A stretch of 64,000 nucleotides of DNA from the NCBI GenBank assembly GCA_019244185.1, contig JAFATB010000026.1:32001-96000 (forward strand). Reading direction: 5' to 3'. Below the pieces are notes generated by a model. The model was not told where the DNA came from. It ran no database searches and saw nothing but the letters and a program-made list of their open reading frames with translations. This DNA is from Acidobacteriota bacterium (GTDB lineage Bacteria > Acidobacteriota > Thermoanaerobaculia > Gp7-AA8). Shown in pieces: positions 1 to 35,635 of this stretch. Positions within the stretch are counted from its first letter, which is position 1; every line of letters starts with the position of its first letter. The position numbers and the translations under genes were made by a program.

Positions 1-411
1 GGCCCAGCCGTGGCCGGAGAAACGCAGTGCTTCGTCGTCGCCGACGCGCACGAGGAAGCAATCCCACGCGACGATGGTGTCGTCCGCATCGGACGCGCGC
101 AGCGCGTCGACGCCGCGTTGCATGAACGCGGGGAGGTAGTAATCGTCGTCGTCGATTTTCTGCATGAAGGCGCCGCGCGAAGTTTCCGCCGCGCGATTGA
201 GGCACGTGCCGAGGGGCGTGTCGGGATCGACGCGCAGGTAGCGAACGCCTTCGCGTCCGGCGCAGAGGTCTTCGACCGGCTCGTCGCTGCCGTCGGCGAC
301 GACGAGCTCGCGATGCGGATACGTCTGCCGCGCGAAGCAGTCGAGCGTCCGGAGAAAAAACGCGCGGCGGTTGCGCGTGGCCACGATCCAGGAGACGAGC
401 GGCGTGTCCAT
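1..411 (-). CDS. Glycosyltransferase family 2 (runs off left edge; not in ORF track)
   Basis: Manual translation from the ATG at 411 gives MDTPLVSWIVATRNRRAFFLRTLDCFARQTYPHRELVVADG...MQKIDDDDYY, a typical GT-A N-terminus plus DxD motif. It starts 5 nt after the upstream GT stop. Confidence 0.85.
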   Translation of the reverse strand, partial: MDTPLVSWIVATRNRRAFFLRTLDCFARQTYPHRELVVADGSDEPVEDLCAGREGVRYLRVDPDTPLGTCLNRAAETSRGAFMQKIDDDDYYLPAFMQRGVDALRASDADDTIVAWDCFLVRVGDDEALRFSGHGWA

Positions 412-416
412 TGACG

Positions 417-2624
417 TCAGGTGTTGGCCGCGGCGTGCATGCGCGTGGCGTTCGCGTAGGCTTCGAGCCATTCCGGGCGGAAGCCCGGCGGCGGCGCGGA
501 CTCGCTCCAGCCGCTCGGGCTGAGGAACGTCCCCGCGTCGAAGCGCCACGTGTTTTTTCCGTGGCGGACGTAGACGAAGAGATCGCCGCGATCGTCGACA
601 CGCAGCAGGCGCTGGCCGCGGCGCAGCGCCTGGCGGAGAAACGCCGCGTCCTCGCCGAGGTTGATTTCGGGGAAGCGGATGCCGTTGCTCCAGATCGAGC
701 GGCGGAAGACGACCGTGCCGCCGGTGACGTCGCCGGCGAACATCGTCCGATGCAGCGAGCCGCTCACGGTCCAGTACTTTCGCTGCGGCAGCTCGAGCAC
801 GAAACGGTTCACGAGCCCCGTGACGTCGGCGTCGCCGTTGAGAATCGGCGCGACCTGGCGCTCGAGCCGGCGGTCGCCGTACCAGTCATCGTCGTCCCAC
901 AGCGCCACGATCTCGCCGCGCGCTTCCGAGCAGCCGACGTTGCGTTTCGCGCCGATGCTCGTGCGCTTGCCGACATGGATGTAGCGGATCGCGGGTTGCT
1001 CGGCGAGCAGCTCGCCGACGTGGTCGTCGCCGTCGTCGATCACAATCAGCTCGCGCGTCGGATACGTCTGCCGCCGGAAGCACGCCAGCGCGAGCGGGAT
1101 GAACGCGCGGCGGCGGAACGTCGGCATGACGCACGAGACCAGCGGGCGGCTCGGCGGCGAGCCGGCGGCGATGAGATCGCGCACGCGCTCCACGCGCTCG
1201 GCCGACCAGAACATGCCGCGCGTTTCTTTCGGACTGACGTTGCCCGGATGTACGGCGGCGACGAAGAGCGTCGGGTCTTTGAGATCGGCGATCTTCGCGT
1301 GACGCGTGCGCCAGAGGAACTGCGTGTCTTCGCCGACCTGCACGTCGACGAAGCGATTGCGCTCCCAGAACGCGCGGCGATAGAGCATGGTCGTGCCGGC
1401 GACCCACGTCGCCGTGCCGCCGGAGTAGCGATACAGATACGCGCTCTCGTGCGCGCGGTCGTAGAAATAGAGCACGCTGCTGCCGCAGATGTCGGCGTTG
1501 CGCTCGCGCAATGCGGCGACCTGCACGCGCACGCGCGACGGCGGATACCAGTCGTCGTCGTCGAAGTGCGCGATGAGCGCGCCGCGCGCCTGTTCGCACG
1601 CGAAGTTGCGTTTCGCGCCGACGGTGAGGCGCGAGGGGAGGCGGAAGTAGCGGATGCGCGGATCGTCGGGAATCAGATCACCGACGGCGTCGGTGCCGTC
1701 GTCGATGACCAGGAGCTCGACATTCGGATAGTCCTGCGCGAGGAAGCCGCGGATCGCGTCGGGCACGAACGCGCGCCGGTCGTGCGTCGGCATGATGCAG
1801 CTGACGAGCGGCAGGTCGGCGTCGAGCTGCGTGCCCGGCGGCGGCGCGAAGTTCGGACACGCATCGCCGCGGCAGTGCGCGCGGTAGTCGCGCTTCTCGC
1901 CGCGCAGCCGCGCGCCGCAGAACTTGTCCTGATAGCGGCGCTTGTTCGCCTCGAACCGCGCGGACTCCTCCCGCGCGCGCTGCGGCGTCACCGGCGCACG
2001 CCAGACGTACGCGCCGCAAACCCACAAGCCGTCGAAGCCCGCGCGTGCGGCGCGGACGTTGAAGTCCATCTCCCAGCACGGCCCGTTGCCATACGACTCG
2101 TCCGCGCCGCCGATCGCCTCCCACGCCTCGCGTTTCACGGCGTAGCAGAAGTCGCCGAGCGAATGGAGCGGCGCGAGCGAGCGGGTAAGCGTGCCGAAGC
2201 GGGAGGCGGCGTCGCGCGCGGTTTCGTCGACGTTCTCCGAGGTCGCGTCGCCGAACAAGCCCTGCTCGTTCCAGTGCCGGTTCGTCGACGGGCCAGCGAG
2301 ACCGGCGCGCGGCGAAGATTCGAGCGCGGCGAGGAGTTGCTCGATGCAGCGCGGGCCGACGAGCGCGCCGGGCTCGAGGAAAATCACGATTGCGGCGTCG
2401 GTGCTTCGCACGAAGCGATTGAACGCAGCGGCTCTTCCGCGGCTCTCATCCGGCAGCACGCGATGTTCGAGCGCGGTCAACGTGCGGCGTGTCTCGGCAT
2501 CCGCGCCGTCGGGGATCACGATCAGCTCGTGCGGAAGCGGCGTATTTCGCGCGATGCTGGCCAGCGTCGCCAGCAAGCGGTCGGGATCGGTCTGAACATG
2601 AGCTCCGATGGCGATCTTCTGCAT
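417..2624 (-). CDS. Multi-domain glycosyltransferase family 2 (three GT-A modules)
   Basis: Two repeats of PLVSC(I/V)MPT..RRAF....QxYP..ELxVIDDG...GAKRN...(F/W)DDDDWY, plus an N-terminal GT2-like module (GGADESYG..WEMDFNVRA). Confidence 0.9.
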   Translation of the reverse strand: MQKIAIGAHVQTDPDRLLATLASIARNTPLPHELIVIPDGADAETRRTLTALEHRVLPDESRGRAAAFNRFVRSTDAAIVIFLEPGALVGPRCIEQLLAALESSPRAGLAGPSTNRHWNEQGLFGDATSENVDETARDAASRFGTLTRSLAPLHSLGDFCYAVKREAWEAIGGADESYGNGPCWEMDFNVRAARAGFDGLWVCGAYVWRAPVTPQRAREESARFEANKRRYQDKFCGARLRGEKRDYRAHCRGDACPNFAPPPGTQLDADLPLVSCIMPTHDRRAFVPDAIRGFLAQDYPNVELLVIDDGTDAVGDLIPDDPRIRYFRLPSRLTVGAKRNFACEQARGALIAHFDDDDWYPPSRVRVQVAALRERNADICGSSVLYFYDRAHESAYLYRYSGGTATWVAGTTMLYRRAFWERNRFVDVQVGEDTQFLWRTRHAKIADLKDPTLFVAAVHPGNVSPKETRGMFWSAERVERVRDLIAAGSPPSRPLVSCVMPTFRRRAFIPLALACFRRQTYPTRELIVIDDGDDHVGELLAEQPAIRYIHVGKRTSIGAKRNVGCSEARGEIVALWDDDDWYGDRRLERQVAPILNGDADVTGLVNRFVLELPQRKYWTVSGSLHRTMFAGDVTGGTVVFRRSIWSNGIRFPEINLGEDAAFLRQALRRGQRLLRVDDRGDLFVYVRHGKNTWRFDAGTFLSPSGWSESAPPPGFRPEWLEAYANATRMHAAANT

Positions 2625-2642
2625 GGCCGTTCGTTCCGTCCA

Positions 2643-3362
2643 TCAGGTGAAAAAAAGAACGTCGCACGTTGGCGAGCCCGCCGCGCCGCGGCGGAACGTG
2701 AACTCGAATAGCGCGTACAGCGACACGAGATCGGCGAGACCGCGGGAGCGTGACAGCATCACCTGTGGAACGAAGTCGACGAAGCCTCGCCAGAACAGTG
2801 CATGCGCGGTCACCGCGGGCAATCCGCGCACATCGCGCAACAGCGCGCCGAAGACGCTCGAGCTGTCGACGGGGAGGTCACCTGCGAGCGTCTCCGTGAA
2901 GGGCTCAGCGGCTTCGAACGTCGAGGTGTCGCCGGCTGCACGGCGTTCCCATTCCGGTGCGCACGACGGGTTGCCGGCGATGAGGTCGTGATGGATCTGC
3001 TGCGCGGGAGAGCCATCCACCGCCACTTCGCGGAGGAAATACTGAAAGAGAAAGCGCTCCGCCATTTCGTCGATGGGGTAGGCGATGAAGCGCCTGCATG
3101 GCGTGTCGGGTGCGAAGCAGTCGGCGCAGTCGCCGGCGGCCTGCTCGAACTCGTTCAACGTCTCGACGAGCGAGAGATACGAAACCTCGGCGTCACTCTC
3201 GCCCGGCACCTGCAGCACGAACGTTTCCCGCTGTTTTGGGTCCGGCACCATGCTTTCCGCGGCGCGGCGATAGGCCTGCAGCTTCATCACGCCGGCCCAC
3301 TCTTCCTCCGACATCTGGGCCTGCAGTCCGCAGCCGAACCAACTGATCACGTCGATTCCCAA
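2643..3362 (-). CDS. Hypothetical protein with CxxC-x6-C motif; candidate toxin-associated/immunity protein
   Basis: Open frame. The TTG start at 3362 (MGIDVISWFGCG) follows an AGAGG RBS-like sequence right after the upstream stop. Contains CADCFAPDTPC. Start uncertain. Confidence 0.6.
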   Translation of the reverse strand: MGIDVISWFGCGLQAQMSEEEWAGVMKLQAYRRAAESMVPDPKQRETFVLQVPGESDAEVSYLSLVETLNEFEQAAGDCADCFAPDTPCRRFIAYPIDEMAERFLFQYFLREVAVDGSPAQQIHHDLIAGNPSCAPEWERRAAGDTSTFEAAEPFTETLAGDLPVDSSSVFGALLRDVRGLPAVTAHALFWRGFVDFVPQVMLSRSRGLADLVSLYALFEFTFRRGAAGSPTCDVLFFT

Positions 3363-3370
3363 CGTTCCTC

Positions 3371-4381
3371 CTACTGTTCCACCGTCAGCTCGTTGCGGCA
3401 GCCGATGCCGCGGAGTTGCTGGCGCGCACAGTCCCACGCGGCGTCGACGCGCTGCCGCAGAAACTGCTCGTGCTCCTTCGCGAGTGCGATCGTGGGGGCC
3501 AGTTGCAAAACGGTCGTGCACGTGCCGCCCGCCAGTGCCTTTTTGATCGAGCTCGCGTTTTTACGGCGCGCCGGTCGCAGGAGCTCGGCGGTCAGATGTT
3601 TCGAAAGGAAGCGAGTGACCGGCGCGGCGGGATCGCACCCCGCGTCGAAGGTTCCCTCGCCGGAGATCTCCAATTGCAACGAGCACGCGGTGTCGTCGAT
3701 GCCTTCCAGTCGCGGGCCATCGCAGGTGAAACGAGGTTGGTCGCCGGCGAACAAGAGCTCGTCCGTGACCGCGAGACGATCGTGCAGTAATTCGCGAGCG
3801 GTGGTTTTGGCGCGGCGCGCGATGGTTGCGAGCGCGCAGACGAGCGGCGCGACCGTCACGGCATCGCGGCGCACGAGATTGCTCTGAACGGCGAGCGCCA
3901 CCGCATTCGCGGCCATTTCCACTTGCCCCGGCTCGGTGCGGAGAAGCGACAGCATCTCGAACAGGTACACCTGTTCGGTCTCGCGATACGGGCGCGCGAG
4001 CGCTGCCTCGATCCAGCGTTGCCGTTCGTCTTTTCCGCGCGTCATCGCGACGGCGAGACCGGCCATCGTGACGTCGATGCTCTCCGCGGCCTGATCGATG
4101 GGCGGATCGAGCTTCCGCAGTTCGTCCGACGCATCGCGCCCGGCCAGCTCGCGGAAGGCGAGCAGTTCGATGTGGTCGACCGCGGAAGCGCCTTCCTGCG
4201 CAACCGCCTCTTCTGCCGCCGCTTCGTTCCAGCCTGCCGGCAGCGGCTCCGATTGTCCGGTGAGCACGCGAAACGCGGCCATCGCGAAAAGGTTCCACGT
4301 CTGCGGCGCGGTGGCCGGCTTGACGACCTTTTCGAATCCGGTGGCCAGCTTCGCGATCAGCTCTTTTTTTCGTTTCATCAA
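3371..4381 (-). CDS. Helical hypothetical protein, candidate immunity protein
   Basis: ATGA overlap with the toxin-like gene stop. 336 aa, Ala/Leu/Glu-rich, no recognisable motif. Confidence 0.65.
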   Translation of the reverse strand: MMKRKKELIAKLATGFEKVVKPATAPQTWNLFAMAAFRVLTGQSEPLPAGWNEAAAEEAVAQEGASAVDHIELLAFRELAGRDASDELRKLDPPIDQAAESIDVTMAGLAVAMTRGKDERQRWIEAALARPYRETEQVYLFEMLSLLRTEPGQVEMAANAVALAVQSNLVRRDAVTVAPLVCALATIARRAKTTARELLHDRLAVTDELLFAGDQPRFTCDGPRLEGIDDTACSLQLEISGEGTFDAGCDPAAPVTRFLSKHLTAELLRPARRKNASSIKKALAGGTCTTVLQLAPTIALAKEHEQFLRQRVDAAWDCARQQLRGIGCRNELTVEQ

Positions 4382-7300
4382 TTTGCCTTCGTCTTGATTT
4401 CGGCATCGCGGATGTTCGCCGCGACCGCGCCGCGGGCGCTGCGGAGCCGCGCCACGAGCGCCTGCAGCAACGCGACCGCCGCCGCTTTTGCGTCATCGGA
4501 GAATTTTGCGTTCCTGCGCATCTCCACGGTGATCTGCAACGTTCCTGCTTGCCCGCTCTTCAGCTGAGCGACGATCGCGGCGATCTCCGGCGGCATGTCT
4601 TCGCCAATGATGCCGAGCATCTTCGCGAAATTCTTGTCGAAGTTCTCCGTGATTCCGGAGAGCTTGTTTTCCAGCGGCTTGCCGCGTTCGAGCGCGGCGG
4701 TGCCGGCCACGATTGCGGCGGCATTCGCTTTCAGCGCCTCGATTGGCTTGCCGTGGCCGACCGGAACGGGGATGGCCTTCTTTCCGGCGGGGATGCCGGT
4801 GTTGCCGCTGCGGCGGGCGATGATGGGCATGGTCTTGTTGAGCTTCGCGCCGCCTTTGAGCTCGAAGATTTCCAGCATGTACGTCTCGTTGCCGGCGGCG
4901 TCGCGGATGATGTGCAGAAACGCGGCGTCGATGCCTTTGCCGCTCTGTGCATCTCCGCCCTTCGTCGGCAACACGATTCCGCCGCCGGCCGCCGCGAGCA
5001 CCTGCAACTCGGCGCGCTTGACGGCTTCGATGGCATCGCCGACCGCCGTGTTCGTGCCCTTCGCTTTGATCACCGCATCGAGCTGCGCGACGGCGTCCGC
5101 CAGCTCCTTCTCGGCGACGTCTTTCGCTTTCTTCAGCTTGTCTGCCACCGACGTGAGGTTGAGCGCCTCGGTCGTCTCGGTCTTTTCCGGATTGACCTTG
5201 CCACGAACGCCCCACTTCTTTCCCTGCTCCACCAGCTCGAGCGACTGCAGCCCGTAGCGGATGCGGATGGCGGCGAGGATCGGCTTGAGGATCTTGCTGC
5301 CCACGCCTTTACCCGCGAAGCGCGCAACCGCGCCTTTCGAAGCCTGCATGGCGTCGTCGAGCTGTTTCTGTTTCGCCTCGGGCGCCGTACCCCCCTTCCC
5401 GAACAGCTTCTTTACGAACGCCACGATCTTTGCGATGGCCTTGTCGATCGCGGCGTCGACCTTCGCCTGCACTTTGGCGATGAAGTCGCGGATCTTCTGG
5501 GCGATGCCGCCGAGGCCGATCAGTCGGGCGAGGAAGCCGATGAGGATCGGGACGGCGTTGCCGAGAGCTTGTTCGACGCGCTTGATGGCGCCGCCGATGG
5601 CGCCGGTGGCGATGGCGTGGATCGAGTTGATGACGCTCTCGACGAACTCCATGATCTGCGCGGCGCGCTCGACCACGAACATGACGATGTTGTAGATCGC
5701 CATGATGGCCTGCACGATGGCGCCGGCCGGGTTGAACATCGAGAGGATCTTCGTCACGGCCTGCTTGACGATCGTGTCGATGATCCACGTCTTGATGGCC
5801 TCGATGACCATGTCCTTGAGGTTCGACAGGTCGGTCTTGACCTGTTCCCACAGCGCCGCGGGGCCGCCGCGGATGAGGATCAGGACGTACTCGATCACCT
5901 TCTCGATGATCTTCATGTTCCGCTCGCCGATGAGCTTCACGGCCTTCGCGCGCATGCTCGCCGCGCTGATGCCGAGGACGCCCATGACGAGCTTGAAGAT
6001 CGAGACGAGCGAGAGGTCCGCGGGGATCTCGACGCCCGGCGGGAGGTTGCCGAACAGCCATTTCTTGAAGCCGTTCGAAAGGTGCTGCTTGATGTTGCCG
6101 ACGAAGGCGCTGATGCCGCCCTTCACGGCGCTGATCAGATTGCCGAGGAAGCCGAGCGGGTCGGCGATGATCAGCTTGATCGTGTCCTCGCCCTTCTGGA
6201 GGATCGCCTGCAGCCGCGCCTTGAACTCGAGGATGGCCTTGAGCACTTCGCCGAGTTTTTCGGCGAACGCCTGCACGAGTCCCTTGTTCTCGTCCTGAAT
6301 CGCCTTGAGCGCTTCGTTGGCTTTGTCGAAGCCCTCCTTGTATTTCTGGGCGAGCGACTGCGCGAGGGAGTTCTTCTTCTCCTCGATCCCTTTCTCGAGC
6401 TCCTGGAAGCGGTTGTTGACGTCGGACGCGGCCTGCTGCGCGAACTGCTGCAGGTCTTTCGGCTGACTGGCGACGTACGCTTTAATGTCGGCCTGACCCT
6501 TCGCGACTTCCTGCTTCGCTTCCTTGAGCCGCTGCTCGACGAGGTTCGCCACGCGCACGATGAGCGCGTCCATCAGCCCCTGGAAGAGCGCGCGTCCCGC
6601 GTCGTAGATGACGTTCACTTCATCGGGCAGACCTTTGAACTGATCGCGGACCCACGCGGCGAGGCCGAGGAGCGGAATGGAGAGGTAGCGGCGGATCTTG
6701 AAGTCGCGGATCTTCGCGTTGACGAAGTTCGTCATCGCGGTGAGGGCCGCATCGACGCCGCGGTCGAAGATGCCGTTCACTTCGCCGTCGATGGCGGCGA
6801 GCTTCGCGTCGACGCGCGCCTTGGTGGCGTTGTAGATCGACTCGATCTTGTCGGTGACTTCCTTGCGCTTGGCCTCGTCTTTCGCTTTCTGTTGCTGCTG
6901 GCGGGTGAGGACTTTCGCGTTACCGCCGGCTTTCACGCCGACCATCGCGGCGGCGCCCGCGCGCGTGGCGCTCGTCGCGCCGGAGACGGTCGCGGTGAGC
7001 GTGGCTTTCTCGGCGGCGCGGTATTTTCCGGGACCGCTGTCGGCGTTCTGCGCGACCTGGGTCTTCGCGTCGAGCACGGCGGAGAAGCGCGGATCGTTCG
7101 CCTTCTTGAGCTGCGTCGGCGTGACTTCCGCGTCTTTCAGCTGCGCGTCGGTGTCCTGCTTCGAATCCTGGAGCGAGACGTCGGCGTCGCTCTTCGGCGC
7201 CGGCATGCCTTCGGCGGAGTTGACGTTCGGCGCGGGCGGCGCGCCTTCAGGCGGCAGCGGCTTCTCGGCCTTCGCGTCGCCGGACGGCGCGGGCGCCGCT

Positions 7301-7713
7301 TTCGACGCGCCGGAAACGTCCTGCGTCGACTTGTCTTTCTGCTGCGAGACGTTGCCTTTGAGACCGCCTTTCATCTGCTGCGCGGTCTGGTCGAAGTTCT
7401 CGGTCTCGCCGAGGTTCTTCGGCATCGCCTTCGCGATCTCGGCGCGGAGGATGGCCAGGAAGGAGCTCTGTTCGGGCTTGCCTTCCTTCGCCTCTTTGAT
7501 CTTGTCGACCTGCTTCGCCTTGCCGCCGGCGAGCTTCTCGTTCGGCGGACCTTTCGACGCGGCCGCGGCGTCGGCGGCTTTCTTCGAGGCCGGCGGATGC
7601 GTCTTCGTTTTCGCCGCGCCTTGTTTGAGCTGCTCCATGACGCGCCGGTAGCGCGGATCGGATTCCGGCGACGGCTTCGGCAGCGGCTTGCGGCGAAGAG
7701 CGGCTCCGGGCAT
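4378..7713 (-). CDS. eCIS-associated polymorphic toxin-like effector: long coiled-coil/hydrophobic carrier plus PD-(D/E)xK-like C-terminal domain
   Basis: Start MPGAALRRK at 7713, 2 nt after the ATPase stop. Core KILSMFNPAGAIVQAIMAIYNIVMF resembles eCIS cargo/phage-tail-like proteins. Linker ...GKVNP is followed by GKGIDAAF...LEIFELKGG. Confidence 0.7.
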   Translation of the reverse strand: MPGAALRRKPLPKPSPESDPRYRRVMEQLKQGAAKTKTHPPASKKAADAAAASKGPPNEKLAGGKAKQVDKIKEAKEGKPEQSSFLAILRAEIAKAMPKNLGETENFDQTAQQMKGGLKGNVSQQKDKSTQDVSGASKAAPAPSGDAKAEKPLPPEGAPPAPNVNSAEGMPAPKSDADVSLQDSKQDTDAQLKDAEVTPTQLKKANDPRFSAVLDAKTQVAQNADSGPGKYRAAEKATLTATVSGATSATRAGAAAMVGVKAGGNAKVLTRQQQQKAKDEAKRKEVTDKIESIYNATKARVDAKLAAIDGEVNGIFDRGVDAALTAMTNFVNAKIRDFKIRRYLSIPLLGLAAWVRDQFKGLPDEVNVIYDAGRALFQGLMDALIVRVANLVEQRLKEAKQEVAKGQADIKAYVASQPKDLQQFAQQAASDVNNRFQELEKGIEEKKNSLAQSLAQKYKEGFDKANEALKAIQDENKGLVQAFAEKLGEVLKAILEFKARLQAILQKGEDTIKLIIADPLGFLGNLISAVKGGISAFVGNIKQHLSNGFKKWLFGNLPPGVEIPADLSLVSIFKLVMGVLGISAASMRAKAVKLIGERNMKIIEKVIEYVLILIRGGPAALWEQVKTDLSNLKDMVIEAIKTWIIDTIVKQAVTKILSMFNPAGAIVQAIMAIYNIVMFVVERAAQIMEFVESVINSIHAIATGAIGGAIKRVEQALGNAVPILIGFLARLIGLGGIAQKIRDFIAKVQAKVDAAIDKAIAKIVAFVKKLFGKGGTAPEAKQKQLDDAMQASKGAVARFAGKGVGSKILKPILAAIRIRYGLQSLELVEQGKKWGVRGKVNPEKTETTEALNLTSVADKLKKAKDVAEKELADAVAQLDAVIKAKGTNTAVGDAIEAVKRAELQVLAAAGGGIVLPTKGGDAQSGKGIDAAFLHIIRDAAGNETYMLEIFELKGGAKLNKTMPIIARRSGNTGIPAGKKAIPVPVGHGKPIEALKANAAAIVAGTAALERGKPLENKLSGITENFDKNFAKMLGIIGEDMPPEIAAIVAQLKSGQAGTLQITVEMRRNAKFSDDAKAAAVALLQALVARLRSARGAVAANIRDAEIKTKAN

Positions 7714-7715
7714 GG

Positions 7716-11472: not shown

Positions 11473-11484
11473 CCGAGTTCCCGT

Positions 11485-22408: not shown

Positions 22409-22416
22409 GACGTTCC

Positions 22417-25387: not shown

Positions 25388-25388
25388 G

Positions 25389-26462: not shown

Positions 26463-26473
26463 CGCGTTCGTCC

Positions 26474-26665
26474 TCAGTAGGCGGAGAGCCGCAGCATGCG
26501 TTCGTGCCGGCGGCGCGAGACTTTCTCGAGCTCGCGCTCGAGCTCGGGTCCGGACTTCGCCGCGCCGCCGCCGCTGCCTTTCGCATCGCCGCCGGCGCCG
26601 CTCGCGTCGGCCGCGGGCGGCACGGCTTTCGGCTCGATGGTCAAGTCGTTGATTACCGTCGTCAT
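26474..26665 (-). CDS. Small eCIS protein (DUF5908-like position and size)
   Basis: 63 aa: short beta N-terminus, flexible linker, basic helical C-terminus. Lies between the tube initiator and hub. Confidence 0.6.
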   Translation of the reverse strand: MTTVINDLTIEPKAVPPAADASGAGGDAKGSGGGAAKSGPELERELEKVSRRRHERMLRLSAY

Positions 26666-26669
26666 TCGT

Positions 26670-27927: not shown

Positions 27928-30308
27928 CACGCCACCTCCACGGCCGACGGCGTTTCGCCGCGCTGCACGAGCCGGATGGTGAGGAACGACAGCGGCCGCG
28001 ACGGCGCGATGCGCAGCTCGGCGATGAAGCGGCCGGCGTCGGTCGACTGCGGCGTGTTGATGGTGTCGTCGGTGACGACCTGGAACGCGCTCGACTCGTT
28101 GCGTCCCGCGAACGCGCCGCGCGCGTACATCGACGCGAGCAACGACTCGAAGCCGCGCTTGGCGCTGTTGCGCAGCGCGTCGCCGTGCGGCTCGAACGCA
28201 TAATCGTTGCCCGCGCGCAGCGCGGCGCGGCGCACGAGGATGAGCAGGCGGCGCACGTTGAGCGCCGAGAGATCGGGATCGGCGGAGAGCGTGTCGGCGT
28301 CGAGGCAGAGGAAGCCGGCCGGCTCGTGGCGGATGAGATTCACGGCCGCGTCCTGCAGCGCCTGGCGCGCGAAGACGGGGAGGTTCGGCGTTAGCGCGAC
28401 GACGCCACGCAGCGCCTCGTTCGCGGGCGCGATCCACGCGCCGCGCGCGATCGCCCGTGCGGCTATGACGCCGGCGGTCGCGCCGTCGGGCGTGGTCGTG
28501 CGCAGCGCGCCGTCCTCTTCACGAACGATGAGCCACGGATGCCACAGCGCGCCGTAGCTCAGCGCCTGCGGTTCGATGCTCGCCGCGAGGCTCGCCGTGT
28601 ACGCGATGGCGCGGCGGTCGTCGTAGTGGCGCGGCAGCGAGAGCAGCGCCACGAGATCGGCGCGCGCGGCGCACATGCGCAGCAGCGCGCGATGAATCGG
28701 CGCGAGCGCGGGATCGTCCGTGTCGTCGTCGTCGAGCGCGGTGAAGCCTTCGAGACCGGCGACGTGCACGGCGATGCCGTTCGACCAGCCGCTGGTTCGT
28801 CCTTCGCCGGTGCGGCGCACGCGATAGAAAAAGTCGCCGGCGGCGTGACCGTAGATCGGCAGCGCGCCGGTGGTGCTGATGAGGATCGTGGCGGCGTCGG
28901 AGAATGCGGCGTCGGTCGCCTCCTGCAGTTCGTCGACGAAGCCCGCCAGCCTGTTCCACGTCAGCGTGTAGCTGCCGTGCTCCGGGATCGATGACGTCAG
29001 AATCGGCGGCGGCAGCGGTTCGAGCAGCGCGCAGTCGACGAAGCCGCTCGGTGCCGCGTCCGCGTCGTTGCTCGCGGGCAGCGTGCGCACGGGCGCGTCG
29101 TCATCGGCGTCGCGGAGCCAGCCACGATGCACCGCGTCGGGCGCGGCGAGCATGGTTGCCTCCTCGATGCCGAGGGCGGAGTGGATGCCGCGCAGCGCGA
29201 GGTTCGCCTGATAGCGAAGCGCGTCGGCGCGGTCGAGGAGGTCGCGTGTATCGGCGTCGGCGAGATGTGGATCGAGAAAGAGCGCCGCGCCGAAGTCCGC
29301 GAGGCCGTCGCGTTCGAGCGCGGGCGCGGGGAGGAACTGCGCGGAGGCTTCGTTCGAGAAGAGGATGCTCATGCCGAGCGGCACGTAACGCGCGGCGGCG
29401 TTCTGCGCGGCGAGCGCGAAGCGCGGCGTCGCGGCGTCGCGCCAGAGGTCGGAACGCGTGGCGTCGCGTTGCGCGTACAGCGCGGCGTCGGTGGGCAGCG
29501 CGCTGAACGCGCGCGGATGTTGCGGCGTGAAGCCGAGCGCGGTCGCGCGGAGCGTGGCGTCGCCGGTGCGGACGCTGAGATCGAACGTCAGCTTCGCCGC
29601 GGACGCGCTGCCGGCCGGCGCGCTCACCGGCGCGGCGATCTGCGCGAGCGCCTTCGTCCAGAGCGCGGTGCCGCCGAGGCGCAGTCCGCGCAGCGTGGCG
29701 GAGAGCGGCGAGAGCGCGACCTCGTCGACCGATTCGACGAAGAGATACAGCGTCTCGTCCGCATCGCTCCACGCGAGGCGCACGAGATCGCCGGCTGCGA
29801 CTTCGGTCGTCGACGTCACGGCGACGATGAGCGAGGTGAGATCGGTATCGACGAAGCGCAGCGGCTGCGCGTTGAGATTCGTCTTCACGCGCAGCGCATC
29901 CGACCAGCTTCCCTCCGAGCGCGCGATTGCGATCGCCGGCGTCAGCGCGACGCCGTCGAACTGCATGAGACCGGGGACGACGAACGTGTTCGCGACCGCC
30001 TCGCCGGCGACGCGCACGACCCAGCAGCGCCGTCCGCCGTTGCGGAAGAACGCGCGGACGCACGGCGCGAGCTGCGCGTAACGCGGATCGCTCGCCTGTC
30101 CATTCGTCTGCCGGGGCCGCGGCAGTTCCACGTCGCCGCCGAAGATCATCGCGAACTGCGCGACGTCTTCCACGGCGACGGGAAGATGCAGCGGCCCCGA
30201 CGCGGCGAAGCCGGCGAAGACGGGGATGTCCATGCGAGGCAGCGCGTCACCGAGCGGACGCGCCTGCGCCTCGAACCGAATCCCCGGCAGCGGTCGCGAA
30301 CGGCTCAT
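27927..30308 (-). CDS. Second, divergent tail sheath-like protein
   Basis: Start MSRSRPLPGIRFE (ATGA overlap). FAGFAASGP...VRAFFRNGGRRCWVVRV; WIAPANE; LNVRRL; AFEP; GAFAG...AFQV. Confidence 0.85.
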   Translation of the reverse strand: MSRSRPLPGIRFEAQARPLGDALPRMDIPVFAGFAASGPLHLPVAVEDVAQFAMIFGGDVELPRPRQTNGQASDPRYAQLAPCVRAFFRNGGRRCWVVRVAGEAVANTFVVPGLMQFDGVALTPAIAIARSEGSWSDALRVKTNLNAQPLRFVDTDLTSLIVAVTSTTEVAAGDLVRLAWSDADETLYLFVESVDEVALSPLSATLRGLRLGGTALWTKALAQIAAPVSAPAGSASAAKLTFDLSVRTGDATLRATALGFTPQHPRAFSALPTDAALYAQRDATRSDLWRDAATPRFALAAQNAAARYVPLGMSILFSNEASAQFLPAPALERDGLADFGAALFLDPHLADADTRDLLDRADALRYQANLALRGIHSALGIEEATMLAAPDAVHRGWLRDADDDAPVRTLPASNDADAAPSGFVDCALLEPLPPPILTSSIPEHGSYTLTWNRLAGFVDELQEATDAAFSDAATILISTTGALPIYGHAAGDFFYRVRRTGEGRTSGWSNGIAVHVAGLEGFTALDDDDTDDPALAPIHRALLRMCAARADLVALLSLPRHYDDRRAIAYTASLAASIEPQALSYGALWHPWLIVREEDGALRTTTPDGATAGVIAARAIARGAWIAPANEALRGVVALTPNLPVFARQALQDAAVNLIRHEPAGFLCLDADTLSADPDLSALNVRRLLILVRRAALRAGNDYAFEPHGDALRNSAKRGFESLLASMYARGAFAGRNESSAFQVVTDDTINTPQSTDAGRFIAELRIAPSRPLSFLTIRLVQRGETPSAVEVA

Positions 30309-30760
30309 ACGCGCTCGACCGCCAGCCGCTCGTACGCGATCACGAGCTCTTCCATCGCCGCGTCGTTGCCCTTCGCATTGAGGCCGCCGAGGGTGTACTT
30401 GAGCGGGCGGGCCTCGTTGAGCGTCCAGCGCGCGACGGTGCGATGGTCTTCGCTCTGCAGCTCGACGGTGATCGTGCGGCGCGAGTTGGTCTCGCCTTCG
30501 CGCACCTGGTTGATCCAGTCGAAGAGCGCGGTCGGATTGATGATGCCGCGCTTGAACGTCACGTCCGCGGCCTTGTTCAGGCCCGTCAGCTTGATGACGT
30601 TGTTGTGCGGCGCGTTGCCGACGCGGTAGTCCTGCTGCGCGATCTCGGTCGAGAGACCGGTGACTTCCTGAAAGCCTCCCTGGATCGAACCGGGATCGGC
30701 GCCTCCGCCGAGGTTCACCAGGAAGTTGAACTGCATGTAAGGGCGGTCGCGGTCGGCCAT
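30305..30760 (-). CDS. Tail tube protein (T4 gp19-like)
   Basis: PYMQFNFLV...GFQEVTGL...YRVG...KLTGL.K..DVTFKRG...W...A.P.KY...LNAKGND.AMEEL. AGGAG RBS. Confidence 0.95.
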   Translation of the reverse strand: MADRDRPYMQFNFLVNLGGGADPGSIQGGFQEVTGLSTEIAQQDYRVGNAPHNNVIKLTGLNKAADVTFKRGIINPTALFDWINQVREGETNSRRTITVELQSEDHRTVARWTLNEARPLKYTLGGLNAKGNDAAMEELVIAYERLAVERV

Positions 30761-30772
30761 GGTGTCGTCTCC

Positions 30773-32659
30773 TTAGACCTTGCGATCGGCCGTCCACTGA
30801 CCGACGCGGATGATCACGTACTCGGCGGGGCGGAGCGCGGCGACGCCGACGAGACAGACGAGGCGTCCGTTGTCGAGATCGTTCTGCGTCATCGTCGAGC
30901 GGTCGCACTTGACGAAGAAGGCCTTCTCCGCGCGATCGCCGAGCAGCGCGCCGTTCTGCCACTCGTTGAAGAGGAAGTCGGTGATGGTGATGCGGACGTT
31001 CGACCAGAGCCGCTCGCCGTTCGGCTCGAAGACCGCCCACTGCGTGCCCTTGTCGATGGAGTGCTCGAGGTAGGCGAAGTAGCGGCGGAGATTCACGTAC
31101 TTCCACTCCGGATCGGAGCTCGCCGTGCGCGCGCCCCAGAGGCGGTAGCCGCGTCCCTCGAAGAAGCGGAAGCAGTTCACGCCGAGCGGATTGAGCACGT
31201 CCTGCTGGGCCTTGTTGAGCAGCGTCTCGAGGCCGATCGCGCCGTCGACGACCTCGTTCGCCGGCGCTTTGAACACGCCGCGCTCGATGTCGTTGCGCGC
31301 GTAGATGCCGGCCACCGCGCCGCTCGGCGGAAGGTTGATCTCCTTCTGCGTCACCGGATCGAAGACGGTGATCCACGGGTAGTACAGCGCGGCGTACGAG
31401 GTGTCGATCTTGCCGCGCATGTCGCGCACGTCGGCGATCGACTGCTTGTCGCCGGAGTCGAGGACCGCGATGCGGTAGCGCATGCGCTGCGCGTGCGAGA
31501 TGACCGAGTTGAGGATGGCCAGCTCCTGCGCCGCGCGCGTGGCGAAGTTGAGCGTCGAGCCGGGCGCGGCGACGATGGAGATCTCGTCGATGTCTTCGAG
31601 CGCCTTGAGGCCGCTCTTGGTCTTGTCGTCCGGCGCGCCGCCGTGGCCCTCGTAGTCGTCGACTTCGGGCAGCGAGCCGTCGTCGCCGCCTTCGAGCACG
31701 AAGTCGAAGGAGCGCTCGGCGTCGCTCGACGCCGGATTCTTGAGCTGCTGCGCCATCGACTTCGTCGGATCGGACGGCACGGGCGCGAGGCCGAGGATGT
31801 AGGCGATGAGGGCGAGGCCGTCGTCGAACGCGTCGAGGTTCATCACGATCGGGATCGAGCGCGCCCGTCCCATCGACGGCTGTTCGAGCGCGAACATTGA
31901 CGCCATCGAGTCGTCGGCGCCGTTGCGGCGATGGCGCGCGTCGAGGGCGAGCTCGGGATAGACGAACGAGGCGATGTTCGGATCGGGCGGGAGGACGGTG
32001 ACGGCGGCGCTGATGATCTGCAGCGTGTTCACGCCGGCGGAGAGGTCGTTGGTCGTTCCGCCCTGGCGGATGCGCCACTTCGGCGTGCCGCCGTCAAAGA
32101 ACGACTCGACGAACCAGAAGTCGGGCGCGCCGGCGTTCGCGGAGTTCAGCATCACGACGTCGTTTTCGACGACGCCGCGCAGCGTCTTGGTGGCGGCGTC
32201 GAAGACGTTCGGCCCGGCGTTCAGCGTGATGCGCACGCGCATGTTGCCGCCCGCGCCGGGGAAGCGCGCCGAGACGAGCAGCGCGCCGGTCTGCTGCGAG
32301 ACGCCCACGCCCGGCGGGAACGCGACCGGCGAGTCGAGCGGCGAGGCGTTCACGACTTCCGGCGAACCGCCGCGGAACGTGCGGGCGATGTACAGCCGCT
32401 TGCCGCCGTTCTCGAAAAACATCCGGACGGCGTGCCACATGTAATTGTGGATGGCGCCGCTGCCGAAATCGAGCGGCTGCCGGTCGCCGTAGATGCGCTC
32501 GTATTCGACGAGACCGGTGATCACGTCGGGGACGAGATCGATGGGGCCGAAGCGCGTCGGCCCGATGAACGCGGTCGTGGTCGTGCTCACGCCCTCGATC
32601 GATTTCGAGCGGAACGAGACCTCTTCGACGTAGACGCCTGGAGCTAGATATTCTGGCAT
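30773..32659 (-). CDS. Contractile tail sheath protein
   Basis: MPEYLAPGVYVEEV...FFENGG...ALYYPW...PPSG.VAG.YAR.D..RGVFKAPANE...WGART...WKYVNLRR...WAVFEPN...PAEY. Confidence 0.96.
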   Translation of the reverse strand: MPEYLAPGVYVEEVSFRSKSIEGVSTTTTAFIGPTRFGPIDLVPDVITGLVEYERIYGDRQPLDFGSGAIHNYMWHAVRMFFENGGKRLYIARTFRGGSPEVVNASPLDSPVAFPPGVGVSQQTGALLVSARFPGAGGNMRVRITLNAGPNVFDAATKTLRGVVENDVVMLNSANAGAPDFWFVESFFDGGTPKWRIRQGGTTNDLSAGVNTLQIISAAVTVLPPDPNIASFVYPELALDARHRRNGADDSMASMFALEQPSMGRARSIPIVMNLDAFDDGLALIAYILGLAPVPSDPTKSMAQQLKNPASSDAERSFDFVLEGGDDGSLPEVDDYEGHGGAPDDKTKSGLKALEDIDEISIVAAPGSTLNFATRAAQELAILNSVISHAQRMRYRIAVLDSGDKQSIADVRDMRGKIDTSYAALYYPWITVFDPVTQKEINLPPSGAVAGIYARNDIERGVFKAPANEVVDGAIGLETLLNKAQQDVLNPLGVNCFRFFEGRGYRLWGARTASSDPEWKYVNLRRYFAYLEHSIDKGTQWAVFEPNGERLWSNVRITITDFLFNEWQNGALLGDRAEKAFFVKCDRSTMTQNDLDNGRLVCLVGVAALRPAEYVIIRVGQWTADRKV

Positions 32660-32678
32660 TCGGTTCTCCTCGTTTCGT

Positions 32679-33554
32679 TCAGGGCGGCGACCCCGCCGGA
32701 GTGATGAGCAATGTCGGCGTCGCGCCGCCGCCGGCGTGCGTGGAGAGGCGCAGCTCGCGCCCGAACTGCAGCGTGGTCTGCGTCCACGGCGTCAGCGGCG
32801 AGGTCTCCTCCCACGCCGTCGCGGGCGGCTGCGTGAGGACGTCGACGAGATCGGGAAGCGCGGGTACCGGCGTGCGCCGGCGATAGCGAACGGTGAAGTC
32901 GACCGCCCAGGTCTGCTGCGTCAGCGGCGTGTTGACGCTGCCGGGCGAGCCGAGGGTGATCACGGGCTTCGGATAGAAGAGCGGCAGCATCACGCGGCCC
33001 TGCGCGTCGGCCATTCCGGTGACGAGGCGCTGCTCGCCGGCCTTCGCTTCCACGAGCGCCCACGCCGCGGGCTCGCCGGTCTCCGCGTCGATGAGCTCCG
33101 CGCGCAACACGCCCATGCCGTCCGGCGCGTTGCGCGTCGGGGCGGAGAAGAGCGGGACGAACGGCGCGGCGGGCGGCGAGGTCGCGTAGTCGATGCCGAA
33201 GACGCCGCGATGCGGCACCTCGACGCTGAACCAGCAGGGGAGATACAGCCCCCCGAGGTCGCGCACTTCGACGATGAACGTGCGCGTCGTCTGCGTGGCC
33301 CAGAACGCGTCGTCGCCGTCGCCGTGCTCGACGTCGCGCATCCACGGCAGATCGCGGAAGACGAAGATGCCGGACGGATTGGCGAGGCCGCTCGTGCGCA
33401 GTTCGGGAAGACCTTCGGGATACGCCTGCACGAGGAGCGACGACGACGCGTACTCGCGCGTCGCCTCGTCGCGGAAGCGCACCGCGAGCGGCGTGAGCAT
33501 CGGGACGCGCTCGAGCACGATGACTTCCATGCCCGTGCCCACGTCGACGCTCAT
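32679..33554 (-). CDS. eCIS-associated hypothetical protein (carboxypeptidase-regulatory-like beta domains)
   Basis: Start MSVDVG at 33554 (ATGA overlap). Lies between the cap and sheath genes. Four S-P motifs including C-terminal GSPP. Confidence 0.7.
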   Translation of the reverse strand: MSVDVGTGMEVIVLERVPMLTPLAVRFRDEATREYASSSLLVQAYPEGLPELRTSGLANPSGIFVFRDLPWMRDVEHGDGDDAFWATQTTRTFIVEVRDLGGLYLPCWFSVEVPHRGVFGIDYATSPPAAPFVPLFSAPTRNAPDGMGVLRAELIDAETGEPAAWALVEAKAGEQRLVTGMADAQGRVMLPLFYPKPVITLGSPGSVNTPLTQQTWAVDFTVRYRRRTPVPALPDLVDVLTQPPATAWEETSPLTPWTQTTLQFGRELRLSTHAGGGATPTLLITPAGSPP

Positions 33555-34144
33555 GCGGGCACGCTCACTTTCCCCATGTCGAAGACGCGCGTCTGCACCG
33601 GGTCGTACTCGAACATCTCCAGCTGCGACTCGAGCGAGACGTTGCGCACGATGTACGCGGCGCACGGCTGCATCTGCGGCTTGGCCGTGTCCCAGATGAC
33701 GTTCATGTCCTGGATCGAGACGTTCTCAAGAAGAACGTCGATCGCCTCGCCCTCGCCGAAGATGTCGGGTTCTGGGCCGTATTGATTGAGGAGGCTCGCG
33801 TGCAGCAGCGGCGTGTCTTCGATCGTGCGCATGGCCCAGCCGAGAAGGCGCTGCTGCTTGAACGCGTCGCGCGCCCACGCCACGAGCAGGTAGTGGAGAT
33901 CGAGCGGCATCGACGGGCGGTAGCGCCGTCCATCGAGTCCGACGCGCGGCGGCAGGTTGCGCACGACCGAGCCGGGTGTGACGCGATGGAGATAGAGCGC
34001 GATGCCTTCTTCCATCGGCGACTGCAGGTTCTTCGACTGATAGAGCTCGAACGCCGCGCCGGCGAACTCCGGCTTCGGAACGGCGGCGGCGAGCATCGAG
34101 AGGATCGCTTTCCCGATCGCGGCAATCGCGTATGGACCAGCCAT
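33551..34144 (-). CDS. Pvc16/DUF4255-like tail terminator (cap) protein
   Basis: MAGPYAIAAIG...IALYLHRVT....RN.P...LDLHYLL.AW...QRLLGWAM...W. First gene of the operon. Start taken at 34144. Confidence 0.85.
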   Translation of the reverse strand: MAGPYAIAAIGKAILSMLAAAVPKPEFAGAAFELYQSKNLQSPMEEGIALYLHRVTPGSVVRNLPPRVGLDGRRYRPSMPLDLHYLLVAWARDAFKQQRLLGWAMRTIEDTPLLHASLLNQYGPEPDIFGEGEAIDVLLENVSIQDMNVIWDTAKPQMQPCAAYIVRNVSLESQLEMFEYDPVQTRVFDMGKVSVPA

Positions 34145-34160
34145 GGACGCCGCTTCCTTT

Positions 34161-34176
34161 TTCAACGGCGCTGCCA
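34161..34176 (-). promoter_or_regulatory. Candidate sigma54 (-24/-12) promoter
   Basis: Minus strand reads TGGCAGCGCCGTTGAA vs consensus TGGCAC-N5-TTGC. Spacing is correct but -12 is GA rather than GC, and the predicted transcript leader would be very short. Confidence 0.4.
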
Positions 34177-34213
34177 TGACTGCGACACGGCAAAGTGTCT
34201 TTGGAATCTATAC

Positions 34214-34280
34214 GTTACGCTGCGAGCGCCCTTCGAGCGAAGCTGTTACACGTTACGTTTGTAACGCGGCGCGTGTTACA
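34214..34280. promoter_or_regulatory. Cluster of GTTAC/GTAAC half-sites, candidate enhancer (UAS) for the adjacent activator
   Basis: Five copies in 67 bp, including palindromes GTTACA-N9-TGTAAC (34245-34265) and TGTAAC-N9-GTTACA (34260-34280). Confidence 0.6.
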
Positions 34281-34285
34281 CGCGA

Positions 34286-35635
34286 TCAGGCGCTCGCGTT
34301 GCGGTCGTACGCGCCCGGTTCTTCCGCGTGCGGAAAGAGGTCGTACTTGACCATCTTGCGGTAGAGCGTCATGCGCGAGCAGCCGAGGATGCGCGCGGCG
34401 TCGTTGCGGTTCCAGCCGCTGGCGCGCAGCGCGCCGAGCACTTTCTCGCGCTCCGATTCGCGCTTGCGCTCCTCGCTGGCGAAGAGCGCGCGGAGATACG
34501 GCGGGAGGTCTCGCCGCGTGACGCGCGTCGAGTGGCAGAAGACGAGCGTCGACTCGACGACGTTGCGCAGCTCGCGGACGTTGCCCGGCCAATCGTATTG
34601 CAGGAGCGATTCGAAAAAGGAGGAGTCGATGTCGTCGATGCGGCGGTCCGCGGTCTCCGCGAGCTCCCGCGCGAGATGCGCGACGAGCGCCGGGATGTCC
34701 TCGGTGTGCTCGCGCAGCGGCGGGAGATGCAGGCGCGCCACGTTGAGCCGAAAGTAAAGATCTTGACGAAATTTCTGCTGCGACGTCAGCTGCTCGAGGT
34801 TCTGGTTCGTCGCCGCGATGATGCGGATGTTGACGGCGATCTCGCGGTTGCCGCCGAGGCGCTGCACTTTGCGGCTCTCGATCGCGCGCAGGATCTTGGC
34901 CTGCGCGTAGAGGCTCATGTCGCCGATCTCGTCGAGGAAGAGCGTGCCGCCCTGCGCGTACTGCAGCTTGCCTTCACGCGCCGCATGCGCACCCGTGAAC
35001 GCGCCGCGCTCGTAGCCGAATAGCTCGCTTTCCAGCAGCCCTTCCGGAATGGCCGCGCAGTTGAGCGAGACGAACGGGCGGTCGCGCCGTTTGCTGTTGC
35101 GATGAATGAGCTCCGCCGTGAGCTCCTTGCCGGTGCCGGTCTCGCCGGTGATGAGGACGTTGCTGTCCGACAGCGCCACGCGCTCGATCGCGCGCCGCAC
35201 CTGTTCGACGCACCAGCTGCCGCCGACGAGCCGCTCGCCGTTGCGCAACGTCGTCTTCGGCGCGTCCGCCACCCACCCGCCTCGCGCGCGTCCGATGGCC
35301 TCGTCGATCTCCGCCGGGGAGCTGTCGTCCGTCAGCAGATCGTTCACGCCCGCGCGCATCGCGGACAACACGAGCGAGGCTTCGCAGCGCGCCAGGACGA
35401 AGACGAGCGTGACCCGCTCGTCCGCGCGCCGCACATGCCGCGCCGCGGCGAGCATTTCGGAGGTGAGCAGGTCTCCCTGAACCACCACCCACTCCGGCAC
35501 ATCCGCCCGAATCCCGGCCAGCAGCTCGAGCTCGTCCCCCGCCTCCTGCACCACCCACCCTCGCTCGGCCAACGCCGCCGCCACCCGTCCACCCTCAACG
35601 ACAGAGTCCTCGGCCTTCCACCACAGCGCACGCAT
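34286..35635 (-). CDS. Sigma54-dependent transcriptional activator (NtrC/AtoC-like) with degenerate receiver
   Basis: GETGTGKE, NCAAIPE.LLESELFG, intact GAFTGA, LFLDEIG, WPGNVREL and a C-terminal Fis-type HTH. Confidence 0.95.
   Translation of the reverse strand: MRALWWKAEDSVVEGGRVAAALAERGWVVQEAGDELELLAGIRADVPEWVVVQGDLLTSEMLAAARHVRRADERVTLVFVLARCEASLVLSAMRAGVNDLLTDDSSPAEIDEAIGRARGGWVADAPKTTLRNGERLVGGSWCVEQVRRAIERVALSDSNVLITGETGTGKELTAELIHRNSKRRDRPFVSLNCAAIPEGLLESELFGYERGAFTGAHAAREGKLQYAQGGTLFLDEIGDMSLYAQAKILRAIESRKVQRLGGNREIAVNIRIIAATNQNLEQLTSQQKFRQDLYFRLNVARLHLPPLREHTEDIPALVAHLARELAETADRRIDDIDSSFFESLLQYDWPGNVRELRNVVESTLVFCHSTRVTRRDLPPYLRALFASEERKRESEREKVLGALRASGWNRNDAARILGCSRMTLYRKMVKYDLFPHAEEPGAYDRNASA

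Follow-up and report, generated by a model that had tools for sequence, protein, structure and literature searches.

How an extracellular contractile injection system (eCIS) that has no PAAR protein contacts its target is a question that the available portions of Chen 2019 (PMC6899500) leave unanswered for the eCIS subtype IIb. It is raised again by an operon at one end of the 64,000-nucleotide stretch of DNA analysed here (the window: positions 32,001 to 96,000 of contig JAFATB010000026.1), which comes from a bacterium whose closest named relatives are labelled Thermoanaerobaculia, Acidobacteriota. We can now name candidate target-contact parts, the last nine residues of the spike and the family of an unannotated 621-residue protein encoded in the slot where PAAR would be expected. 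This tip candidate, and a link between the system and glycosyltransferases, are concrete and testable, and we did not find either in the literature searched.

Architecture and subtype of the operon

As far as its genes can tell, the locus is a real, intact phage-tail-like eCIS with a full contractile-tail machine, carried on the chromosome. Its 26 co-oriented genes run along the minus strand from position 35635 to beyond the first base of the window and have the codon bias of real genes (the genome is 67% GC); apart from a 141-bp gap after the first gene, an activator, neighbours overlap or sit no more than about 20 nt apart. The last gene, a family 2 glycosyltransferase (GT2), extends 248 bases beyond base 1, so that the locus is not whole inside the window. 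The initial annotation, which described a complete operon of about 24 co-oriented genes, was thus right on orientation, short on the count and mistaken on completeness. Searches of the host genome found the sheath and tube genes nowhere else.

Pfam and NCBIfam profile scans of all operon genes, with PHROGs searches of 14 of them, matched Pvc16, two sheaths, two tubes, CIS_tube, a gp27 hub, a gp5 spike, gp25, one baseplate J protein, Tail_P2_I, IPT/TIG, an outer-membrane beta-barrel, an AAA ATPase and GT2 domains. The same searches found no capsid, portal, terminase, integrase, TssJLM, PAAR, DUF4157, lysis or afp14 tape-measure family in the operon; these absences are of library matches only, and several operon genes have no family at all, all of them in conserved eCIS slots. 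An HExxH motif occurs in none of the 26 proteins. The scans bear out the first description of core contractile-tail parts unaccompanied by capsid, portal, terminase or TssJLM genes, and its remark that PAAR, DUF4157 and lysis genes are missing holds within the operon, the genome carrying one PAAR and 16 DUF4157 matches outside the window.

Most likely the locus is an eCIS of subtype IIb with an antibacterial toxin role. The portions of Chen 2019 (PMC6899500) at hand name IIb as the one dbeCIS subtype that lacks afp10/PAAR; its other traits are a split afp8, a single afp11, an afp6 but no afp14, divergent afp12 and afp13, and unannotated genes of its own. Here PAAR is absent, afp8 is split into gp27 and gp5 genes, there is one PF04865/TIGR02243 gene, and the divergent afp12- and afp13-like products match NF053768 once and NF053767 twice, all below cut-off (Table 1). 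Three conserved unannotated genes (291, 621 and 570 aa) are candidates for afpIIb1-3. Gene order equals that of catalogued IIb loci of Corallococcus, Lysobacter and Myxococcus xanthus, where the match is one of gene order, size and Pfam label, not of sequence. In the accessible part of the eCIStem data (Geller 2021, PMC8213781), Corallococcus coralloides DSM 2259 COCOR_02847-02868 matches slot by slot. Operon 12015 of Lysobacter antibioticus (30 of 89 rows) has a sigma-54 activator and, between spike and gp25, an unannotated gene of 2055 bp, and continues with TIG, a VWA protein, ATPase, a DUF4157-less Ntox15 toxin, immunity and a capsule-synthesis gene; M. xanthus DK1622 MXAN_4492-4510 has the same core, with no glyco gene among 30 of 114 rows. 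Table S3 of Chen 2019 (PMC6899500), in its available part, gives one IIb locus each for Corallococcus and two Lysobacter strains, and M. xanthus DK 1622 appears in the accessible, hand-decoded text of the IIb tree figure.

Because both the IIb traits and the gene order of catalogued loci match, we take the locus to be one further member of a known subtype, its architecture already catalogued, and not the distinct subtype first proposed; comparison with dbeCIS and eCIStem placed the same slots in Lysobacter, Corallococcus and M. xanthus, so that the gene set is the standard content of a described group. Nor was the Afp/PVC-type call borne out, as subtype Ia has a fused spike and PAAR and this locus has neither. 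The broader description, an eCIS that combines a slot for a toxin with a hydrophobic protein next to the spike and with glycosyltransferases linked to the machine, has stood. With the catalogued IIb loci it shares the cap-to-ATPase order and sizes, the lack of PAAR, the split spike, the single baseplate J and, between spike and gp25, an unannotated gene of 1.5-2.1 kb, and with Lysobacter also the activator, TIG, DUF4157-less toxin, immunity and 3' glyco-enzyme. It differs in its Acidobacteriota host, in having an outer-membrane barrel after TIG where Lysobacter has a VWA protein, in a rare type of toxin tip, and in a glyco module made of a three-domain and a one-domain GT2. The assignment is tempered by the 63-aa Afp6-like protein, which has no family, profile or PDB match. 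An open reading frame of 51-68 aa was called in this slot in 46 loci, about 42 of which share its pattern, and a 174-177-bp gene there is likewise unlabelled in the eCIStem rows of Corallococcus, Lysobacter and M. xanthus.

Other contractile systems resemble the locus less closely. Afp/PVC (Ia) shares the cap, sheaths, tubes, Afp7, gp25, baseplate, Afp15-like ATPase and 3' effector position, but its fused Afp8, its PAAR (Afp10) and its Afp14 tape measure were not found here. Unlike a type VI secretion system (T6SS), the sheath and tube are of gp18/gp19 type, and the VipB, VgrG and PAAR of this genome sit on another contig, C6. The best solved relatives of the spike are those of AlgoCIS and the Anabaena thylakoid-anchored CIS (7aef and 7b5h; E 3e-35 and 5e-33), systems whose Cis12 and Cis13 are also weakly similar to operon proteins; their spikes, however, are fused, profile coverage ends before the YTPGAGNIW terminus, and no counterpart of the 621-aa protein was found there. 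An experimental study of a IIb system was not found in the literature searched (most subscription journals and bioRxiv supplements lay outside its coverage), nor a description of one in the passages seen of PMC10598620, PMC11297309, PMC13699834, PMC10313047 and PMC8651086.

The PAAR slot, the spike end and membrane attachment

Wherever the PAAR slot was visible it is occupied by the 621-aa protein. Six of 34 same-genus genomes (tallies for the genus include the unpublished genomes G002 and G024) and 5 of 400 sampled genomes of the phylum have its gene, and it was seen in 54 loci spread over Acidobacteriota, Burkholderiales, Desulfuromonadaceae, Anaerolineae and Gammaproteobacteria. The distance from the spike stop to the first matched 621-aa codon is at most 190 nt in 47 of the 49 loci with both genes, one exception being matched partly and the other misparsed; on the far side, one locus has as much as 361 nt before gp25. 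PAAR was matched inside the locus in none of ten related genomes tested.

The spike itself ends in YTPGAGN(I/M/L)W in 48 of 49 sequences, and its last nine positions have a conservation of 0.99, against 0.75-0.82 elsewhere (29 sequences). Spikes of the P2 type carry a histidine-metal tip. That option was ruled out here, because histidine is nearly absent from the last 30 residues (one of 29 sequences).

The 621-aa protein belongs to a family of 1648 clusters at 50% identity and has no Pfam, NCBIfam or PHROG family name; no plasmid match was found, and an Atlas search returned unnamed clusters only. All 85 family sequences inspected have a C-terminal hydrophobic segment, which is the most conserved region (0.84); a basic tail follows it in 74, and a signal peptide was found in none. 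Its AlphaFold2 model (pLDDT 82, pTM 0.63) is a split beta-sandwich into which a helical bundle is inserted; its C-terminal part, modelled with lower confidence, includes a long hydrophobic helix. In a VIA search with this model the best Z was 7.1, within the stated background, as were the second row, the N-terminal domain of a Bacteroides T6SS effector (Z 7.0, rmsd 3.7, 127 aligned), and the third, a chain of that effector's spike cargo complex (Z 6.7, rmsd 5.4, 135 aligned). The predicted resemblance to the Bacteroides effector is only a lead.

We propose that no PAAR is needed, the tip being formed or docked by the nine invariant residues at the end of the spike, and that the 621-aa protein would sit on the spike tip with its hydrophobic end inserting into the target membrane. 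Gene position and co-conservation suggest this role of a cap that enters the target membrane, which we hold tentatively; the lack of any Foldseek match to the model at E<=0.001 in PDB or BFVD counts against it. Anchorage in the producer's own membrane, though doubtful, is nearly as likely, and some other role is possible to a similarly limited degree. Membrane-anchored systems are known (thylakoid CIS, Streptomyces CIS and T6SS-iv), and the predicted hydrophobic segment could suit either producer or target membrane. The question can be put directly to the genetic model M. xanthus DK1622, where the gene in the PAAR slot is MXAN_4502.

Attachment to the producer also has to be weighed in the light of the 712-aa outer-membrane barrel protein. 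This consists of a signal peptide, a beta-rich passenger of about 555 aa and a small C-terminal outer-membrane barrel, and the barrel is single-copy in the host genome; the passenger has no family, and a PDB profile search with it gave no significant match. Across 28 loci with the slot in view the barrel occurs in 8, on at least two different passengers. The passenger occurs without it in six loci, of which three are leaderless as read and four end with a short amphipathic tail; in several loci nothing fills the slot. The protein is an optional surface accessory with an exchangeable anchor, barrel or amphipathic tail. It is exported and therefore cannot join the particle during cytoplasmic assembly; tethering of particles by it after their release is possible. 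The envelope tethering suggested by the initial annotation is no more than a possibility, the barrel being optional and the hydrophobic protein perhaps acting on the target.

A system that never leaves the cell would read this evidence differently: the 621-aa protein would anchor the baseplate in the producer's inner membrane, the barrel protein would dock it at the outer membrane, and the machine would fire from the cell or serve programmed cell death, like the thylakoid- and membrane-anchored systems. The conservation of the hydrophobic segment, the basic tail and the missing signal peptide all agree with this, as do the lack of a matched lysis family and the amphipathic passengers of four loci, which make the slot seem to favour membrane attachment. 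The barrel, on the other hand, is present in a minority of loci and its slot empty in several. Immunity genes and the exchange of toxin tips are more in keeping with an assault on other cells than with self-killing, and a 621-aa gene that occupies the PAAR slot is suggestive of the spike tip. We regard a cell-bound system as unlikely, and prefer the spike-tip cap.

PAAR matches exist elsewhere in the genomes. The host's lies, with two DUF4157 genes, in a T6SS cluster on C6 (G000:C6:124400-143500), and G066 has one on the locus contig, about 14 kb beyond the fetched stretch; none was found anywhere in four of the ten tested genomes with the locus, namely G007 (98% complete), G027 (90%), G061 and G062, completeness figures existing for five of the ten. 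That such an external PAAR caps this spike, leaving the 621-aa protein an unrelated effector, would be allowed by its presence in the host and six of the ten relatives, but is very improbable given the four genomes that have none, the full T6SS cluster to which the host's copy belongs, and an invariant spike end that suggests a dedicated partner or a self-formed tip.

Toxin slot and glycosyltransferases

By sequence, the 1111-aa protein is a member of a polymorphic toxin family with swapped nuclease tips. A conserved helical carrier with three hydrophobic helices extends to about residue 850 and is followed by a variable tip; against the G027 protein the carrier is 70% identical over residues 4-848, and beyond this the tips are unrelated. 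Seven of 13 toxin-slot proteins scanned contain DUF4157, two end in Ntox15 and three in an endonuclease domain, and Tdi1 immunity genes stand behind the Ntox15-tipped toxins of relatives. The DUF4157 (eCIS_core) toxins and Ntox15/Tdi1 pairs described in the consulted part of Geller 2021 (PMC8213781) share the slot, a homologous helical carrier and variable nuclease tips; the 1111-aa protein differs in having no DUF4157 or HExxH, as do the Lysobacter and Corallococcus eCIStem rows with respect to DUF4157, and in a tip that matches no family. This tip carries a PD-(D/E)xK-like motif (E...GID...ELK, kept in 3/3, the tip and its two homologues), from which nuclease activity is predicted. Several observations weigh against this: the only two homologues are 76% identical, Pfam gave no match, and the structure model of the tip is unusable (pLDDT 41). 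No further homologues were found among short proteins or metagenome contigs, and an Atlas lead to a restriction endonuclease cluster (0.88) stays below 0.9. The 335-aa and 239-aa proteins encoded downstream, also without any family match, are candidate immunity proteins by position. The toxin-immunity call made at first therefore holds at the level of the family, with its swapped tips and the Tdi1 genes of relatives, and not for these two family-less genes.

In tandem arrays of several relatives (L077, L079, L086, L091-L093, L095, L096 and L098) two or three toxin-slot genes follow one another, often a DUF4157-less gene and then a DUF4157-bearing one.

The 15 orphan DUF4157 proteins of the host genome were considered as cargo of this eCIS and rejected: other genomes with the locus have 0-3 DUF4157 matches, and the orphans track a T6SS variant, G006 (15 in total) and G011 (12) both having DUF4157 genes and a similar VipB on one contig. 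About 15 orphans, in the C6 cluster and at 14 other places in G000, share an N-terminal VIQGxFP-like motif and have variable C-termini. Two orphan genes lie between ClpV and VgrG in the C6 cluster, and the same pairing occurs in G006:C26 and G011:C102. DUF4157 has been described as an eCIS marker, and its use by a T6SS would be notable.

For the system as a whole we propose that particles assemble in the cytoplasm, that the ATPase helps to load the 1111-aa toxin, that particles leave by cell lysis, and that the nuclease tip is injected into neighbouring bacteria, the gene after the toxin conferring immunity; we think this sequence of steps, taken jointly, reasonably likely.

In 30 of 32 informative loci, genes of glycosyltransferase type come after the toxin slot. 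They were seen at 10 of 10 distant loci and 17 of 20 further ones (one by BLAST only), the 20 being what was left of 25 after removal of one duplicate and four loci with no ATPase match; of the three negatives, two ended inside toxin arrays and one had none. Same-genus loci have them in G027, G007 and G022, and G010 has neither toxin nor glycosyltransferase. Orthologues of GT2a, from the GT2a-GT2b pair, occur in four of six genus genomes with the locus and three of 28 without it, and adjoin eCIS genes directly in five of the seven same-genus genomes with an orthologue, two of these being of another eCIS type. In G006 the pair stands beside DUF4157 genes of that other type, on a contig shared with a sheath, a tube and two baseplate genes; in G001 it is again beside DUF4157 genes, sheath and tube being on a second short contig; in the third genome without the locus the orthologue lies at the edge of a contig. 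Across two classes, GT2a orthologues share 50-52% identity over their full length, whereas the best other GT2 of the host genome matches at <40% over about 100 aa. Neither enzyme has a membrane segment, and PHROG glycosyltransferase matches to the operon proteins are weak.

The simplest reading is that these soluble enzymes may glycosylate particle proteins, which we consider about as probable as the remaining accounts together. Mycobacteriophage virions offer an analogy and no more, being glycosylated by phage-encoded glycosyltransferases (Freeman 2023, as cited in the available part of PMC12619734), with glycosyltransferase genes that likewise travel with tail structural genes. If true, a glycosylated injection particle would be new. 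A recurring link between eCIS loci and multi-domain GT2 was not stated in the literature searched. Set against particle glycosylation are the depletion of GT2 over all eCIStem loci (odds ratio 0.28; Geller 2021, PMC8213781, in part), where 7 of 13 listed GT2 rows are nevertheless 2.2-2.3-kb genes like the three-domain GT2, its absence from the M. xanthus rows listed, from G010 and from L104, and the fact that the loci counted are kin and not independent. For the initial annotation's "glycosylated" eCIS, comparison has thus supplied support in the recurrence of the genes, and a glycan on the particle stays an analogy.

The enzymes could instead modify the producer's own surface glycan, so that fibres spare kin and the particle itself is untouched. 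Relatives pair the glycosyltransferases with FkbM, CmcI and Methyltransf_24 methyltransferases and capsule-synthesis domains, glyco genes adjoin immunity genes, and phage-encoded serotype conversion is a precedent (PMC12619734, in the part available). A soluble pair with no flippase or polymerase gene seen beside it, found in G006 and G001 among the structural genes of another eCIS type, fits such receptor masking poorly, and we give it, as the chief alternative, a small but real chance.

More improbable still is that the accessory genes are passengers gathered at a variable 3' end, having no functional tie to the machine. The wide variation of the barrel slot speaks for this, as do the commonness of the GT2 family, its depletion in eCIStem (PMC8213781, in part) and the lipid and lanthipeptide genes that follow here and appear at no other locus examined; full-length identity among GT2a orthologues and their adjacency to eCIS genes speak against it.

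The second eCIS type of the genus (L105-L108; G006:C84, G001:C559/C588) carries the same GT2 pair, and has one tube, a PAAR-like small gene, two baseplate genes and several DUF4157 genes. Of the 34 genus genomes, 27 yielded tube genes.

Returning to glycosylation of the particle and the spike-tip cap, IIb could be a structurally distinct syringe, its spike capped by an unnamed membrane-entering family, its surface glycosylated by portable GT2 enzymes that it shares with other eCIS types, and a partner with an exchangeable anchor holding particles on the envelope in some Acidobacteriota. The tip, glycan and tethering roles are proposals, and we offer this combined picture as a speculative one.

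Features, transcription and surroundings

Table 1 Features of the eCIS operon, in order of transcription, with positions in the window
Feature	Position	Strand	Evidence and remarks
Sigma-54-dependent activator, 449 aa	34286..35635	-	PF00158 9e-70, HTH_8; receiver-like, AAA+ with visible GAFTGA, Fis HTH; slot shared in G013, G010, Lysobacter
Four GTAAC(A)-like boxes, probable activator binding sites	34245..34279	-	kept in 5/5 aligned genomes
Sigma-54-like -24/-12 element, TGGCAG-N5-TTGA	34162..34176	-	non-canonical -12; TGGCAG and TTG invariant in 5/5
Pvc16/Afp16 cap (terminator), 197 aa	33551..34144	-	PF14065 7e-27
Conserved unannotated protein, 291 aa	32679..33554	-	syntenic; position suggests cap-adaptor slot; no Pfam, PHROG or PDB profile match
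Sheath 1, 628 aa	30773..32659	-	PF04984 1e-23, PF17482
Tube 1, 151 aa	30305..30760	-	PF06841 1e-33
Sheath 2 (divergent), 793 aa	27927..30308	-	PF17482 1e-5, PF04984 0.002, both below cut-off; syntenic
Tube 2, 166 aa	27427..27927	-	PF06841 6e-27
Afp7-like tube initiator, 254 aa	26670..27434	-	PF19266 2e-25
Afp6/plug-like protein, 63 aa	26474..26665	-	size and pattern
gp27-like hub, 357 aa	25389..26462	-	PF05954 5e-10
gp5-like spike, 237 aa	24674..25387	-	PF04717 2e-26; best PDB 7aef, 7b5h; C-terminus YTPGAGNIW
Protein in PAAR slot, 621 aa	22806..24671	-	C-terminal hydrophobic segment 571-603; no signal peptide
gp25 wedge, 130 aa	22417..22809	-	PF04965 1e-21
Baseplate J (single Afp11), 755 aa	20141..22408	-	TIGR02243 8e-69, over cut-off
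Afp12/Cis12-like baseplate protein, 890 aa	17469..20141	-	Tail_P2_I; NF053768 8e-40, below cut-off
Afp13/Cis13-like fibre-base protein A, 457 aa	16099..17472	-	NF053767 2e-8, below cut-off; 7b5h All3314 E 0.022
Afp13/Cis13-like fibre-base protein B, 415 aa	14842..16089	-	NF053767 1.5e-9, below cut-off; no significant match in PDB profile search
IPT/TIG protein, 396 aa	13637..14827	-	PF01833 7e-7; variable between relatives; probable fibre tip or adhesin
Outer-membrane barrel protein, 712 aa	11485..13623	-	PF13505 3e-13; ends in Phe
Conserved unannotated protein, 570 aa	9760..11472	-	upstream of ATPase in loci examined; no significant match in PDB profile search
Afp15-like AAA+ ATPase, 688 aa	7716..9782	-	PF00004 2e-26
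Polymorphic toxin, 1111 aa	4378..7713	-	helical carrier, variable tip, no DUF4157
Candidate immunity protein, 335 aa	3371..4378	-	position only
Second candidate immunity protein or orphan, 239 aa	2643..3362	-	position only; TTG start with ribosome site
Three-domain GT2, 735 aa	417..2624	-	PF00535 9e-56 in three stretches
Second GT2, 219 aa	1..411 (continues past window start)	-	PF00535 1e-12; probable last operon gene

A conserved sigma-54-like promoter is predicted ahead of the operon. The activator retains GAFTGA, and upstream of Pvc16 the four GTAAC(A) boxes and TGGCAG-N5-TTG are kept in 5/5 genomes at -24/-12 spacing; the box pattern occurs once in the genome and the exact TGGCAG-N5-TTGA motif four times. 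A scan for canonical sigma-54 sites found none, the element having emerged from the alignment of five genomes. The activator, we infer, probably induces a single long transcript that begins with the Pvc16 gene and includes the second GT2, which is most likely where the operon ends; the 89-bp gap beyond it holds a sigma-70-like site (one found, against a chance expectation of 0.7).

The lipid and lanthipeptide genes downstream were rejected as part of the system on account of this gap and its site, and of their occurrence at no other locus examined. At window -3872 to -338 a DarB/StlD-like ketosynthase fused to a heme-oxygenase-like domain is followed by a desaturase and DUF6999, a probable lipid or small-molecule cluster. 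Farther out (-8119 to -3966) lies a lanthipeptide-like cluster with a 775-aa kinase-LanC protein, a family-less 387-aa protein, for which a HopA1-like label had no Pfam support and was rejected, and a 203-aa precursor-like gene, rich in Cys and Thr, that ends in a C-terminal coiled coil.

On the other side, two large STAND-type regulators (AAA_16 with LuxR HTH; winged HTH with AAA_16 and TPR) flank a small SCO4226-like gene at 37122-43051 (+), about 1.5 kb upstream of the gene for the eCIS activator. Secreted repeat proteins come next, at 43160-50293 (+), a sortilin-like one of 1174 aa and an FG-GAP protein of 749 aa, with shifts in AT-skew and GC. A type I restriction-modification cluster (HsdR, HsdS, an AAA_13 protein and HsdM) at 52063-59153 (-), with a lower GC of 0.58-0.63 and an adjoining HTH gene, is likely an acquired island.

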